This document shows, piece by piece, positions 8,895-23,607 of a stretch of DNA of 64,000 nt (position 1 is its first letter; every line of letters begins with the position of its first letter). Origin of the DNA: Candidatus Kaiserbacteria bacterium (GTDB taxonomy: Bacteria > Patescibacteriota > Minisyncoccia > Phycocordibacterales > UBA918); the NCBI GenBank assembly GCA_019634005.1, contig JAHQWD010000003.1, positions 67,725 to 131,724 on the forward strand, read 5' to 3'. The position numbers and the translations under genes were made by a program. Under the pieces are notes generated by a model. The model searched no databases. It saw nothing but the letters and a program-made list of their open reading frames with translations, and was not told the DNA's origin.

Positions 8895-9476
8895 ATGATC
8901 ACCGTAGTTGGACTACAAAACCCAGGGGCAGAATATACAAACACTCGACATAATGTGGGAGAGATGGTCGTGCGTGCATTCCAAGAGAGACACAACCTTC
9001 CTTCCTTTGTTCCGTCATCACAATACGCAGGAGAAATCTCCGAAGGAGTGGTTGACGGACAAGAGGTACGACTTCTTCTCCCAACTACGTATATGAATAA
9101 AAGCGGAAGTGCGGTTAAGAAGGCACTTCATCTTCCCGAAGGTCTCATTGTTGTCCATGACGAACTGGCGCTCCCGCTTGGGGAATTTAAAATTGGATAC
9201 AACCAGGGAGCAGGGAGCCACAATGGCGTGCAATCTATTATTGATGCACTTGGCATGAAAGCGTTCACAAGACTTCGTGTTGGTATCTCACCAACTTCAT
9301 TCTTTGGAAATATGAGACCACCAAAAGGAGAGAGGCGAGCAAAGTTTGTATTGCAGACGTTTTCTAAGAAAGAGATGTCTACAGTTGAGGCAATGCTGCC
9401 GGAAGTACTTACTGCACTTGAGACAATACTTACACAGGGGAGAGAGAAGGCGATGAATCAGTTTAATGTGTCATGA
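8895..9476 (+). CDS. pth: Peptidyl-tRNA hydrolase
   Basis: N-terminal [18 protein letters not shown] and the HNG catalytic region (GAGSHNGV). 193 aa. Confidence 0.9.
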
Positions 9477-9964
9477 ATAAGACCAAAGGATTTACACTCA
9501 TAGAACTACTTGTTGTTATAGCGATTATAGGTATTTTGGCGAGTGTTGTTCTTGGTTCGTTGAATGCAGCACGCGGTAAAGCGAGAGATGCACGACGTGC
9601 TGCGGATATGTCACAAATTATGACAGCGCTCAATCTCTTCTATTCCGATTACGGCTGCCTACCTCGAACATCAGGGTCGTCCTGTGTTGGAGGGTATAGC
9701 GAATCCAATACTGGTGGCTGGGATGCAAGTGGAGAAGGAGATTTTATGACATTCCTCTCCGACAATGGCTACATGCCTTCAGTACCAGTCGATCCTATTA
9801 ATGATGGAGGCGGAGGAAGTTCTCATAGTTATCGATACTATTGTTACGTCTCTGGTCAGAGTTATACAGGGCTACATCTTGGGTACTGGGACGAGTCTGG
9901 GGCATATATACGCTACGCAACGTCAGGTGGCGCATGGACGACACAAGACTACTTGTGTAGATAA
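9473..9964 (+). CDS. Type IV pilin / pseudopilin with N-terminal prepilin cleavage-methylation motif
   Basis: [22 protein letters not shown] is a class III signal peptide with G-F-T-L-I-E. The C-terminal region is Gly/Ser-rich with Cys residues. Confidence 0.7.
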
Positions 9965-9984
9965 AAAGAAAAGGAGAGTGTTTT

Positions 9985-10299
9985 TCAGCACTCTCCCTGA
10001 GGGGGTATCTGTACCAAAACGTGGTACTCTTTTGCAAGTTGTTCCGGTAGCCGTGCATTCTTGTGGAAGTCTTTTCTTTTTCTATACGTAAAGACATTCC
10101 CTACGACTTTTCCTTCTGAGTCCACTATATTTTCACATTTCTCGAGTGTGACAAGTGGGTGTTCTGAGAAAGAAAAAATACAGAGCCAAAGAGAAGTCTC
10201 TTCAACAGTTAGATCACATTCTCTTGCAAGTGTGCCGGCAGTGAATGTTTCAGTGTCTCGCACAGTCTCTAAAAGTCGCCTGTGGTTATAGATGTTCAT
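9985..10299 (-). CDS. Hypothetical protein (104 aa)
   Basis: Strong SD GGAGGATGAA before the ATG. No motif recognised. Confidence 0.5.
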   Translation of the reverse strand: MNIYNHRRLLETVRDTETFTAGTLARECDLTVEETSLWLCIFSFSEHPLVTLEKCENIVDSEGKVVGNVFTYRKRKDFHKNARLPEQLAKEYHVLVQIPPQGEC

Positions 10300-10355
10300 T
10301 TCATCCTCCTATATCTGTACCCATTATTCATATTTTTAGGATTTTTTCAATTCAG

Positions 10356-10383
10356 TTGACTTCACGAGGAAACATAGTAGTAT
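10356..10383 (+). promoter_or_regulatory. Candidate sigma-70-like promoter TTGACT-16 nt-TAGTAT for a plus-strand ncRNA
   Basis: Hexamers read by eye with 16-nt spacing. No protein gene lies downstream on this strand before the terminator at about 10615. Confidence 0.25.
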
Positions 10384-10400
10384 CTTTTTGGACTTCAGGA

Positions 10401-10451
10401 GGCGTAGACGGGTATCCTTTCGGGGAGAGAGTTCGATTCTCTCGTACGTCT
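10401..10451 (+). ncRNA. tRNA-like minihelix (acceptor stem plus perfect T-arm, no anticodon arm) at the 5' end of a putative ~225-nt ncRNA
   Basis: T-arm gagag-TTCGATT-ctctc at 10427-10443. The 3' acceptor strand gtacgtc (10444-10450) pairs 6/7 with ggcgtag (10401-10407). A 19-nt linker sits where the D region would be. No G3:U70 pair, no CCA. Confidence 0.3.
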
Positions 10452-10584
10452 TTACACGGATGCAAAGGATTCATAGATGCTAAGCATAGATAGGAGGCAT
10501 TGAAACTTCAGTTCTGGCTGAGGTGGAGCCGTCAGTGAGATACTATCCCCTAGAGTAATCTTTTCTTCTCGTACCCTGAACCAA

Positions 10585-10619
10585 CCCCTTCTCGACGCAA
10601 GTTGAGAAGGGGTTTCTTT
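10585..10619 (+). terminator. Intrinsic terminator (ccccttctc/gagaagggg 9-bp stem plus TTTCTTT) ending the putative plus-strand ncRNA
   Basis: Seen in sequence. Confidence 0.45.
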
Positions 10620-10620
10620 A

Positions 10621-10652
10621 TAAAACCACCCAGCGCACGCTGGGTGGTTTTA
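10621..10652 (-). terminator. Bidirectional terminator (ccacccagcg/cgctgggtgg stem flanked by AAAA/TTTT) downstream of rpsA
   Basis: Perfect 8-10-bp inverted repeat with flanking A-run and T-run. Confidence 0.55.
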
Positions 10653-10663
10653 TAAAGAGGGAA

Positions 10664-11845
10664 CTAATCCTTCTTAAATGCCAGTGTCATCTTCTGTTCA
10701 TTTGGCTCAAAGAGCGTAATGGTGAACGGATAACTCTGTCCAAGTGAGAGGGTGTTCTTAAGGTCCTCCTCACTCTCAAATTCGGAGATGTGTACGAGAC
10801 CCGCAACACCTTCCTCGATAGACACAAGCGCACCGTGCTTGTTGTATTTAATAACTGCACCGTTAACCTCTTGGTCCTTCTTGTATTTCTTCGCTGCGCC
10901 AACCCATGGGTTTTCACGAAGCTGCTTGATTGAGAGTGAAATCTTGTCATCCTTCACTTCAATAACTTTCACCTGCACCTTGTCTCCAACTTTAAAGCGA
11001 GATCGTGTGTCTTCTACGAGACCCCAATCAAGTTCAGAGATATGTACGAGTCCTTCAAGTCCTTCCTCAAGTTTGACGAAGATACCGAAGTCCACTGCGC
11101 CAGTCACTTCTCCATCGAGCACATCACCAACTTCGTACTTGCTGACCTTTTCTTCCTTCTCTTCTTTCTCCTGAGGTCCCTTCTCTGAGAAGATAAGCTT
11201 TCCTTCGTTCTGGTCTGCGGTGATGATAATCACTGAAAGGAATGTACCAACAAGATTCTGAAGCTCTCCGAGGATACGATCCTTATCTCCATCTTCAACA
11301 CGTGGATAGTGCTCTGATGAAAGTTGTGATGCTGGAAGGAATCCCTGGATACCCTGCCAATCAAGGATAAGACCACCCTTGTTTGCTTCTTTCACTTCAA
11401 GTGAGAGCACCTTCTTCTGCTTCACTGCCTCTTCTGCGTCACTCCAGATAAGTGCCTGGCGTGCCTCACGGAGTGAGAGCTCGATGTAGCCATCTTCGTT
11501 TGATGCATCGACTACCTTTGCAGCGATTGCATCTCCGACAGATACCTTGCGAAGGATATCACGCGCATTCATGTACTCTCGTCCGTAGATGATTCCAGAA
11601 CCAAATGGTGGAAGATCTATAAAGACACGCGCACGTCCAAGCGCTGATACCGTTCCTTCAATAATTTCACCTTCCTGAGGGGGAAGGGGACTTTCTGCAA
11701 CAAATGCCTCCATGGTACCTGGCTTTGCATCTACCGCAGGGGCTTTTTTCTCTTTCTTGGGCATTTCTGCACCAAGTTCTTCTGCTTTTCCTCCAGAAAC
11801 AGCAGAAACAATTCGGTCTAATACCGATGCTTTTTCTTCTGACAT
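10664..11845 (-). CDS. rpsA: 30S ribosomal protein S1 (short, about four S1 domains)
   Basis: Repeated S1-domain signatures (GxV..I...G.FV.L..g..GL.HISE), for example GEIIEGTV...GIIYGREY and GDVLDGEVTGAVDFGIFVKL...GLVHISEL. Confidence 0.85.
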   Translation of the reverse strand: MSEEKASVLDRIVSAVSGGKAEELGAEMPKKEKKAPAVDAKPGTMEAFVAESPLPPQEGEIIEGTVSALGRARVFIDLPPFGSGIIYGREYMNARDILRKVSVGDAIAAKVVDASNEDGYIELSLREARQALIWSDAEEAVKQKKVLSLEVKEANKGGLILDWQGIQGFLPASQLSSEHYPRVEDGDKDRILGELQNLVGTFLSVIIITADQNEGKLIFSEKGPQEKEEKEEKVSKYEVGDVLDGEVTGAVDFGIFVKLEEGLEGLVHISELDWGLVEDTRSRFKVGDKVQVKVIEVKDDKISLSIKQLRENPWVGAAKKYKKDQEVNGAVIKYNKHGALVSIEEGVAGLVHISEFESEEDLKNTLSLGQSYPFTITLFEPNEQKMTLAFKKD

Positions 11846-12041
11846 ATAATGTTATTTCCGACGATACGTATTCGTACAACTGTGTCTCATGGCCGTGTCC
11901 GTGAGTACGAGGTTACGCGTATGCCGTTAGAACTAATAAACCTTAGTAGGCGAAGAGAGTATAGTATAAAAGCTATATATTGTCTATAAAAAAAGCCAAG
12001 ACGAAATGTCTGGGCTTGACGCAAAGAGGAACAGTTGGAAT

Positions 12042-12175
12042 GACCCGACCGTGGTTCGTGCGGAAGGCGCACAGGGGGTGGGGTGAAGGGCCTTCGCGAA
12101 CCTACGGTCGGGTCTAGCAGGAATCGTCACGGGTGTGTCGAGGTGGGTAACGATTCCTAACTGATCGGTATCCTA
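12042..12175. ncRNA. Highly structured RNA element of unknown class in a 450-nt intergenic region
   Basis: A 19-bp near-perfect helix: gacccgaccgtggttcgtg (12042-12060) pairs with cgcgaacctacggtcgggtc (12095-12114), with only two GU wobbles. A second 8-bp helix aggaatcg/cgattcct (12119-12126 / 12151-12158) follows. The enclosed loops are GC-rich. Strand unresolved. Confidence 0.3.
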
Positions 12176-12297
12176 CAGGGCTCCTCTTCCTTTGTCAACA
12201 GAAACAAAGATTGGACTCAAGACTATTTATAGAGCATACAAAGCATCTATTGCTGTCAACATACAGATACGCATACTTCTGATATACTCTAGTCCAT

Positions 12298-22715: not shown

Positions 22716-22805
22716 TGGTGCCGAGGGCGGGATTCGAACCCGCGCGAGCAAGGAATGCTCACGACATTTTAAGTGTCGCGTGTCTACCAACTCCACCACC
22801 TCGGC
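22716..22805 (-). tRNA. tRNA-Leu (anticodon UAA), long variable arm, CCA encoded
   Basis: Acceptor gccgagg/cctcggc, anticodon stem-loop cgaca-ctTAAaa-tgtcg, long extra arm, T-arm cgggttcgaatcccg. Confidence 0.8.
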
Positions 22806-22869
22806 ATGAGGCGCATAATAGCATAAAACATTTGTTCTGGAAGGTGCAAGATGCTACAGTATTCCACAC

Positions 22870-22944
22870 GTCCTGGTGGCGAAGTGGTAACGCTGAGGTC
22901 TGCAAAACCTCCATGCGCGGGTTCGATTCCCGCCCAGGACTCCA
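22870..22944 (+). tRNA. tRNA-Cys (anticodon GCA), CCA encoded
   Basis: Acceptor gtcctgg/ccaggac, anticodon loop ctGCAaa, T-arm gcggg-ttcgatt-cccgc. Confidence 0.8.
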
Positions 22945-22995
22945 CGTAAAGTGCTTGTTTTTACAAGCACTTTTTAGTACACTCTGGTCTGTTAC

Positions 22996-23068
22996 CCGCC
23001 CATAGCTCAGTTGGTAGAGCAGTTGCCTCTTAAGCAAATGGTCCTAGGTTCGAGTCCTAGTGGGCGGA
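22996..23068 (+). tRNA. tRNA-Lys (anticodon CUU), CCA not encoded
   Basis: Acceptor ccgccca/tgggcgg, D-arm tagctcagttggtagagc, anticodon loop ctCTTaa, T-arm ctagg-ttcgagt-cctag. Confidence 0.8.
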
Positions 23069-23102
23069 CAAAAGACACCAGTCATGGTGTATAATTGGGA
23101 CA

Positions 23103-23480
23103 ATGAAAAATATTTTCCTGAAGACATTCAAATGGATACTACTGACCATTGTTGCATCAGTAATTACTGTTATTGTGCAAGGTATTGTTGAGGAGCAGAA
23201 TCGTTTCAATGCATCAGCAGAGGCATATTTCTCATATGAAAAACTTTCCGAGGAAGAGATAGATGGTATGTATCGCACAGAGTTCCTTCTCATTCTCCGT
23301 GGGTTTGCACCACTTGCGGATACATTACAGACATTCGTATATCCAGGACGATATTGTAGTGTCCCAGAGATACGTCCTGAAGATCTAGAAAACGAATGGC
23401 ATTACGTATCTGTGTGCACGACAGACCTTCCAATCGCAGAGCGAGGAGCGCTCTTTCAGATTGTACAGGTGGCGAGGTAA
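23103..23480 (+). CDS. Hypothetical membrane-anchored protein (125 aa)
   Basis: N-terminal TM helix. Sits between tRNA-Lys and tRNA-Leu. Confidence 0.4.
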   Translation: MKNIFLKTFKWILLTIVASVITVIVQGIVEEQNRFNASAEAYFSYEKLSEEEIDGMYRTEFLLILRGFAPLADTLQTFVYPGRYCSVPEIRPEDLENEWHYVSVCTTDLPIAERGALFQIVQVAR

Positions 23481-23523
23481 CTTTCTGGAAATCATGGACA
23501 CAATAGTGTACACTCTAGTCCAC

Positions 23524-23607
23524 GCCGGGGTGGCGAAATGGTAGACGCGCTAGTCTTAGGAACTAGTGGAGCAATCCGTGCTGGTTCGAGTCCAGTTCCC
23601 GGCACCA
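23524..23607 (+). tRNA. tRNA-Leu (anticodon UAG), long variable arm, CCA encoded
   Basis: Acceptor gccgggg/tcccggc, anticodon stem-loop ctagt-ctTAGga-actag, T-arm ctggttcgagtccag. Confidence 0.8.

Follow-up and report, generated by a model that had tools for sequence, protein, structure and literature searches.

Why should 364 nucleotides (nt) without a gene, lying between two minus-strand genes, carry a promoter and a terminator on the plus strand? The question is raised by positions 10300 to 10663 of a 64-kb stretch of DNA from Candidatus Kaiserbacteria (Patescibacteria, or candidate phyla radiation, CPR), the whole of which is called the window here. The gap is bordered by the start of a 104-amino-acid (aa) orphan gene (9985 to 10299, minus strand) and by the stop of rpsA, the gene of ribosomal protein S1 (10664 to 11845, minus strand). 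A preliminary description had seen in it a non-coding RNA of about 225 nt headed by a mimic of the top half of a tRNA. We propose that the gap holds a lineage-specific small RNA (sRNA) gene of about 230 nt on the plus strand, with its own sigma-70-type promoter and intrinsic terminator. Judged from the sequence, we put the probability of this reading at roughly 0.55. The gene lies back to back with the promoter of the 104-aa orphan, at the variable junction where rpsA and pth converge, and the model holds without the 5′ domain of the RNA being a tRNA mimic.

Transcription Signals in the Gap

The plus strand has a sigma-70-type promoter-like site at 10356 to 10383, composed of TTGACT (10356 to 10361), a 16-nt spacer, and TAGTAT (10378 to 10383), as the preliminary description had read it; the other features in its list are likewise all found in the sequence. 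The closest carrier of the element, a locus from a related lineage that we call L082, keeps the −35 box and the 16-nt spacing, and its −10 box, TATTAT, is an improved one. Transcription is predicted to start near G10390, which would give a plus-strand transcript from about 10390 to about 10620, or some 230 nt. At its end is an intrinsic terminator (10583 to 10621), in which a 14-bp stem formed by 10583 to 10596 and 10601 to 10614 closes a GCAA loop and is followed by the U-tract TTTCTTTAT. This is the strong hairpin and U-run already pointed out in the earlier reading, as is a separate terminator that serves rpsA. The latter is a perfect 21-nt inverted repeat on the minus strand (10615 to 10635 and 10638 to 10658) that lies outside the sRNA and is also found in two relatives that lack the sRNA, L085 and L086.

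The promoter and terminator calls are consensus predictions, and both signals are conserved in L082. The gap thus has what marks an intergenic sRNA gene: its own predicted promoter and a Rho-independent terminator, on one strand, in DNA that is free of genes. The 104-aa gene has a close promoter-like site of its own on the minus strand (10323 to 10350; TTGAAA, 16 nt, AATAAT), conserved in L082, and therefore the gap is not the leader of that gene.

Constraint on the Transcribed Region

All divergence figures given here compare the window with L082. The predicted transcript (10391 to 10619) differs at 9 of 229 positions (3.9%), and its terminator (10583 to 10619) at none of 37 (0%). On either side of this transcript, the divergence rises abruptly: it is 14% in the promoter region (10356 to 10390), 12.5% in the segment before it (10300 to 10355), and 25% in the rpsA terminator (10620 to 10663), a neutral comparator in which three pairs have changed in a compensatory manner. 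Flanking non-coding sequence has diverged by 17%. Third codon positions have diverged by 11% in the pilin gene, 25% in the 104-aa gene, 30% in rpsA, and 45 to 50% in gyrA, the metallo-β-lactamase-fold gene (mbl), pth, and lepB. Fisher tests of the transcript against these comparators range from p = 0.013, for the most conservative of them, the pilin third positions, to about 1e-37, with p = 3e-5 against the flanking non-coding sequence.

Could the constraint be that of a short coding sequence? In all six frames of the sRNA region, the reading frame is broken or the changes are non-synonymous, by which small-ORF (open reading frame) readings were ruled out. The region therefore combines a constraint above the neutral level with a lack of coding potential, a further mark of an intergenic sRNA. 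Given strong constraint and no fitting reading frame, we favour a functional small RNA that is transcribed independently. The non-coding RNA of the preliminary description is in this way supported: its promoter and terminator are conserved, its body is far less diverged than neutral sites, and no frame fits it.

Several observations nevertheless weigh against this reading. The absence of any change in the terminator is unusual for a plain terminator. Divergence in the block from the pilin gene to rpsA is below that of the rest of the genome, and recent recombination, rather than selection, could therefore explain part of the conservation. With only two distinct sequences available, covariation is absent. 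The substitutions show no preference for positions that the single-sequence fold leaves unpaired (permutation p = 0.35); in the RNAalifold consensus, seven of the nine changes fall in loops, but this consensus was fitted to the same two sequences. Finally, a crude RNAduplex scan of the 70 translation-initiation regions in the window gave target scores no better than those of shuffled controls.

Distribution among Relatives

The sRNA is known in two lineages only, that of the window and the closest one, whose rpsA product is 95% identical at the protein level. The loci from the second lineage (L082, L083/L091, and L093) have the same gap together with the same 104-aa and pilin genes. At the equivalent site of three further relatives, the sRNA is missing. 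In L085 (rpsA, 92%), the rpsA terminator and a distant homolog of the 104-aa gene are immediate neighbours; in L086 (87%), a MAPEG gene is found there instead; and in L097 (83%), only 64 nt separate rpsA from pth. It is likewise absent at the conserved rpsA/pth junction in 80 further species.

Searches by similarity agree with the inspection of the junctions. Over the 80 species loci, blastn and nhmmer returned only the window's own copy (L001, a Logan contig with the same sequence), and blastn over 87 loci added nothing except the L082-type copies (L082 and L083). A covariance model of the whole RNA, R1, matched the window copy and L082 alone among 76 sources. Downstream of rpsA in the relatives, a regular expression for the T-arm found no match in the sRNA orientation; its one match, in L008, is an unrelated palindrome about 800 nt past rpsA, in the rpsA orientation and thus opposite to the sRNA. 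Besides copies of the L082 type, a metagenome scan with GAGAGTTCGATTCTCTCGTA gave only three real tRNAs and an unrelated oddity, and no further copy. Nothing relevant was found by scans of viral contigs or by BLAST against phages and plasmids; a 61-nt match at 79% identity to a Scytonema plasmid was taken as chance. A search anchored on the pilin gene gave homologs of at most 66% identity, in unrelated contexts. The proposed sRNA gene is thus accessory, gained in a variable junction, and a candidate for a new family of very narrow distribution.

The tRNA-Like 5′ Domain

The feature that first drew attention to the gap is the 5′ domain, whose letters are as the preliminary description gave them. 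A 5′ acceptor-like strand, GGCGTAG (10401 to 10407), is followed by a 19-nt linker (10408 to 10426) that consists of ACGGGUA and a possible 4-bp hairpin, UCCU-UUCG-GGGA (10415 to 10426). Next comes a T-arm look-alike (10427 to 10443), with stem strands GAGAG (10427 to 10431) and CTCTC (10439 to 10443) and the loop TTCGATT (10432 to 10438). A 3′ acceptor-like strand, GTACGTC (10444 to 10450), and a T in the place of a discriminator (10451) end the domain; no CCA is encoded. The two acceptor-like strands pair at six of seven positions (G1–C72, G2·U71, C3–G70, G4–C69, U5–A68, and A6–U67), with a G7·G66 mismatch at the seventh.

How unusual is such an arrangement? Across the window, a strict T-arm pattern (5-bp stem, G53–C61, TTCRANN loop) matches only the sRNA site and real tRNAs, eight of the nine that are present. 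In first-order Markov random sequences with the composition of the window, 0.25 T-arm-like sites are expected per 64 kb, and 0.087 per 64 kb when at least six of seven acceptor matches are also demanded 10 to 60 nt upstream. The 5′ acceptor strand taken alone is at chance level (about 0.3 by our own calculation). The motif is therefore unusual and not overwhelming, and we regard it as suggestive, not compelling. Genuine tRNA genes of other organisms (Gly, Ile, and Thr), seen in metagenome contigs, have the same T-arm letter for letter, and hence the resemblance to tRNA is real at the level of sequence.

Homology models for known RNAs give a similar answer. Rfam was run over the window at gathering thresholds and, with E ≤ 10, over segments of 551 and 86 nt. 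The tmRNA (transfer-messenger RNA) and tRNA covariance models that the preliminary description had suggested for the gap found no match at threshold. For tRNA, there was no ARAGORN match and none with RF00005, either at the gathering threshold or at the relaxed E ≤ 10; the 5′ strand and the T-arm are only 19 nt apart. The tRNA-Sec model reached 13.8 bits, below threshold (E = 9.3, 551 nt searched, E ≤ 10). The best match is the mascRNA-menRNA family (RF01684), at 17.7 bits against a gathering threshold of 42.5 and thus below it. Positions 1 to 56 of this model align end to end on 10401 to 10450, with the UUCG hairpin on the short anticodon-like stem of the model; its E value of 0.11 is valid for the hand-picked 86 nt only and would be far above 1 for the whole window. 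Apart from these sub-threshold tRNA-Sec and mascRNA matches, the relaxed runs returned only hairpin artefacts, such as mir-4889 on the rpsA terminator. No Rfam match, motif, or shape characteristic of 6S RNA, the signal recognition particle (SRP) RNA, or RNase P RNA was seen on inspection, and these identities were set aside.

A similar T-arm motif in an odd setting was encountered on an unrelated GC-rich contig (L092, JAAIGE0101207382.1, 373 to 497). There, an acceptor-like stem, GGACCAG...CTGGTCC, encloses two T-arm-like hairpins, GAGAG-TTCGATT-CTCTC and GTTAG-GTTCGAATC-CTAAC; neither ARAGORN nor Rfam (E ≤ 0.1) recognizes it.

Folding of the RNA

The plus strand folds more stably than its shuffled versions (z = −2.75). 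Within the 5′ domain, the GAGAGAG run permits a second register of the hairpin, starting from 10425 (G10425–C10443), with 8 bp and a UCG loop. In full-length ensembles, the window sequence adopts the T-arm register with a probability of 0.68, and L082 the shifted register with one of 0.82. Thus, the T-arm that had been called textbook is so in its letters, but a longer hairpin competes with it and is favoured in the relative. For the acceptor-like stem, the full-length ensembles give a probability of about 0 to 0.02, and its 5′ strand favours a distal CUCGUAC copy near 10562. For the 5′ domain by itself, the tRNA-like fold has a free energy of −13.3 kcal/mol, against −19.0 kcal/mol for the local minimum.

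Two of the nine substitutions in L082 fall in the 5′ domain. C10447U turns a G–C pair into G·U, and G10423A turns a U·G pair of the UUCG mini-hairpin into U–A. Both are compatible with the tRNA-like fold, and equally so with the rival local fold. The proposed mimicry of a tRNA top half accordingly stands as a likeness of sequence; mimicry itself is unproven, as the substitutions suit the other fold as well and no covariation is seen.

Organization of the RNA and a Possible Mode of Action

Outside the 5′ domain and the terminator, the predicted RNA has a short leader and a long 3′ body, both on the plus strand. The leader (10390 to 10400), GGACUUCAGGA, holds the first copies of AGGAGGC and ACUUCAG, pairs with CCUGAA(CC) at 10573 to 10580 in full-length folds, and has the same letters in L082. 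The body extends from 10452 to 10582. Its last part, 10534 to 10582, has no differences between the two lineages and is rich in C and U (UAUCCCCUAG and AAUCUUUUCUUCUCGUACCCUGAACC), which makes it a candidate pairing or seed region.

Short repeats are found within 10390 to 10582: AGGAGGC (10397 and 10493), ACUUCAG (10393 and 10506), CAUAGAU (10472 and 10484), and CUCGUAC (10441 and 10562) each occur twice. The two CUCGUAC copies are alternative partners for the 5′ strand of the sRNA. The segment 10485 to 10497 resembles the ribosome-binding region of the 104-aa gene, a likeness that may be due to chance.

It is tempting to propose the following course of events. The RNA would be transcribed from about 10390 to about 10620 under its own promoter and intrinsic terminator, and would act as a regulator, most likely through the invariant C- and U-rich 3′ third (10534 to 10582). 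This segment may pair with the purine-rich ribosome-binding regions of target mRNAs, or it may bind a protein. The 5′ hairpin domain, including the T-arm look-alike, could serve as a structural, stabilizing, or processing module. The product of the adjacent 104-aa gene might control the sRNA, in the manner of oxyR and oxyS, gcvA and gcvB, or sgrR and sgrS.

What is known of this neighbour? Its divergence is 9.5, 3.8, and 24.8% at codon positions 1, 2, and 3, respectively; since third positions are the most diverged, followed by first and then second positions, it is a real coding sequence. The protein has no Pfam match, and a search of 1.84 billion representative proteins gave a single full-length match, to its own cluster; the other matches are to short stretches of long repetitive proteins. 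In the same place, L085 has a 165-aa homolog with 28% identity. An AlphaFold model made without an alignment has a pLDDT (predicted local distance difference test) of 46, which is of low confidence and was not used for a fold search, and it shows the order helix–helix–helix–β–β. The product may be of the winged-helix type, and we regard it as a candidate partner or regulator of the sRNA.

Alternative Explanations

The same sRNA might begin with a reduced tRNA-like module of 51 nt (10401 to 10451) that is recognized by tRNA enzymes, with the acceptor stem, the GGG of the linker as a D-loop analogue, the short UUCG hairpin, and the T-arm as its parts. Cleavage by RNase P at G10401 and by RNase Z after U10451 would give a minihelix of about 51 nt, or else the 5′ end of a 3′ RNA of about 170 nt. 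A T-arm shared with real tRNAs, a strict pattern that in the window matches only tRNAs and this site, an end-to-end alignment to the mascRNA-menRNA model with the same architecture, and two substitutions that preserve pairs all speak for such a module, as does the distance of about 10 nt from the predicted transcription start, a typical length for a pre-tRNA leader. Yet the substitutions fit the rival fold equally well, the mascRNA score (17.7 bits) is far from its threshold of 42.5, the tRNA model has no match, and tRNA-Sec reaches only E = 9.3; by chance, 0.087 such sites are expected per window. The energies (−13.3 against −19.0 kcal/mol), the near absence of the acceptor stem from the full-length ensemble, the change of hairpin register in the relative, the G·G at the seventh acceptor pair, and the lack of an encoded CCA also argue against it, and we consider this version improbable. 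Its extension, in which a CPR bacterium uses a reduced tRNA mimic like those of mascRNA and the gammaherpesvirus RNAs discussed below as a handle for RNase P and RNase Z on an sRNA precursor, is a little more doubtful still; the handle could possibly bring about the maturation of a regulatory RNA downstream of it, or else set free a stable tRNA-like minihelix that does not decode. Comparable odds, still clearly on the unlikely side though a shade better than those of the module, attach to the view that the region is recently acquired or recombined DNA, in which the low divergence reflects the short time since the exchange, the transcript is incidental, and the T-arm is a product of chance. This would suit the low third-position divergence of the pilin gene (11%) and the 104-aa gene (25%) relative to the 45 to 50% elsewhere, the absence of the sRNA from the relatives with rpsA identities of 92, 87, and 83% and from the 80 other species, and a conservation so uniform that it extends to the terminator stem, in which compensatory changes are normally tolerated under selection. 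It does not suit the sharp rise of divergence just outside the transcript, to 14% in the promoter, 12.5% at 10300 to 10355, and 25% in the rpsA terminator. Moreover, the 104-aa gene, with 25% at its third positions, sits between the sRNA and the pilin gene of low divergence, so a single tract cannot explain both, and the sRNA remains below even the pilin third positions (p = 0.013).

Three further readings are less probable still. If the element were a tRNA gene in decay, or what is left of an attachment site at a tRNA 3′ end, with no function of its own, it would have GAGAGTTCGATTCTCTCGTACGTC as the tRNA 3′ half. A T-arm followed by a 7-nt acceptor-like strand does resemble a tRNA 3′ end, and the site is an insertion hot spot, but no tRNA gene stands at the rpsA/pth junction in 40 relatives, the segment has no second copy in the 64-kb window, and there is no integrase among the neighbouring genes. 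These results also count against the tRNA-like integration target that the preliminary description had offered. None of the nine window tRNAs shares the acceptor or T-stem sequence, and the conservation spans 230 nt rather than about 25 nt, which leaves the remnant very unlikely. Similarly slim are the chances that the gap acts at the DNA level only, through operator sites such as the GAGAGAGT-TCG-ATTCTCTC palindrome, bound by the 104-aa protein and controlling the back-to-back promoters. The hairpin is indeed a near-perfect DNA palindrome beside divergent promoters, and the low-confidence model of the protein has the helix–helix–helix–hairpin order; operators, however, would explain neither about 230 nt of continuous constraint nor a perfectly conserved plus-strand terminator 150 to 200 nt away, and the palindrome has no second copy in the window. 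A non-canonical, reduced, or two-piece tmRNA, also among the identities put forward earlier, has in its favour a T-arm and an acceptor-like helix without an anticodon arm, and GUAGACGGG faintly recalls UUCGACGGG, which we take to be a motif of the tmRNA 5′ end. It is contradicted on nearly every other point. ARAGORN, permuted forms included, gave no match, nor did any Rfam tmRNA, alpha, beta, cyano, or mt-tmRNA model at threshold, the best being beta_tmRNA with 5.8 bits (threshold 84) over the 17-nt T-arm only. G3:U70 is lacking, with G2·U71 instead, and the two acceptor strands both precede the body, a topology that matches neither the one-piece nor the permuted form; in this, we concur with the earlier remark that a standard one-piece tmRNA does not fit. 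No plus-strand frame is tag-like: the short peptides AKDS*, AKHR*, and ALKLQFWLRWSRQ* are not conserved as coding sequence. The element is absent at the syntenic site in L085, L086, L097, and the 80 species loci, and because an essential, near-universal gene would not be missing from close relatives at this site, we reject the tmRNA reading as having almost no chance of being correct.

Comparison with Known RNAs

OxyS with oxyR, GcvB with gcvA, and SgrS with sgrR are pairs of an sRNA and a regulator in which the sRNA is often divergent from the regulator gene. The proposed sRNA gene resembles OxyS, GcvB, and SgrS as a stand-alone intergenic gene with its own sigma-70-type promoter and a terminator made of a strong stem and a U-tract. 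As with intergenic sRNAs in general, its sequence is constrained, its length is about 230 nt, and its phylogenetic range is narrow; the small gene from which it is divergent possibly encodes a DNA-binding protein. It differs from the three in its neighbour, an orphan without a family match, and in its host, a member of the Patescibacteria.

Were the 5′ domain a tRNA-like module after all, its nearest counterparts would be eukaryotic and viral. A tRNA-like unit is processed by RNase P and RNase Z in mascRNA/MALAT1, where CCA is then added, and in the gammaherpesvirus tRNA–miRNA chimeras (TMERs). The window RNA shares with mascRNA/menRNA (RF01684) and the TMERs a reduced tRNA-like unit of about 50 to 56 nt fused to a longer non-coding RNA. 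In this unit, the acceptor stem has 7 bp, the D-arm is almost absent, a short hairpin resembles the anticodon arm, and the T-arm is canonical; like the TMERs, the window RNA has the unit at the 5′ end. In contrast, those families are eukaryotic or viral and not homologous to it, and the acceptor stem is here thermodynamically disfavoured. With the tRNA-like domain of tmRNA, the element has in common a T-arm beside an acceptor-like helix and the lack of an anticodon arm. Unlike tmRNA, it has no pseudoknotted body enclosed by the acceptor strands, no G3:U70, and no tag frame, and it is not conserved among relatives.

YrlA, a bacterial Y RNA-like non-coding RNA, contains a tRNA-mimicking module (PMC4201824). 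As in YrlA, one module of the window RNA resembles the T-arm and elbow of a tRNA, and the 5′ and 3′ ends may pair. In contrast to YrlA, it has no Rfam match, no Ro-binding helix was recognised in it, and none of the nine neighbouring genes is a Ro60 (rsr) gene.

Gene Neighbourhood

The neighbours of the gap are gyrA, mbl, rpsA, the 104-aa orphan, the pilin gene, pth, lepB, and a hisS-like gene. The order gyrA, mbl, and rpsA, followed by the convergent pth, lepB, and hisS-like genes, is kept in 80 of 80 retrieved species-level relatives; the relatives found by rpsA are all metagenome-assembled genomes of Kaiserbacteria or Paceibacterota. Within this fixed order, the convergent rpsA/pth junction is an insertion hot spot in both groups (window 9477 to 10663, loci L002 to L097), with a length of 44 to 3424 nt and a cargo that differs by lineage: a MAPEG gene, a 2OG-Fe(II) oxygenase, a pilin, or orphans. 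The pilin-like gene of the window (9473 to 9964), which has an N-terminal methylation motif, is only 11% diverged from its L082 ortholog at third positions, compared with 45 to 50% for gyrA, mbl, pth, and lepB, and this suggests a recent recombination or exchange of an accessory block between the two lineages.

On the other side of rpsA is another long gap (11846 to 12297, 452 nt). Its 150 nt nearest rpsA are 82 to 98% identical to L082 and the remainder 30 to 66%. No Rfam match was found in the 452 nt, which probably hold the rpsA promoter and 5′ leader. Elsewhere in the window, genes for tRNA-Leu (taa), tRNA-Cys, tRNA-Lys, and tRNA-Leu (tag) are clustered within 900 nt (22716 to 23607), and CCA is encoded in some of the window's tRNA genes and not in others.

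Significance for the Patescibacteria

We know of almost no described regulatory RNAs in the Patescibacteria, and of no characterised sRNA among them. As the evidence stands, the element proposed here is one more lineage-specific sRNA candidate, carried by two lineages. A strategy in which a tRNA mimic directs RNA processing has, to our knowledge, been described only in eukaryotes and their viruses; if the 5′ module were indeed processed like a tRNA, maturation of an RNA by way of a tRNA handle would also operate in bacteria with minimal RNase repertoires. In either case, what the gap appears to offer is a concrete candidate for a constrained, stand-alone sRNA gene with clear signals in a member of the CPR.

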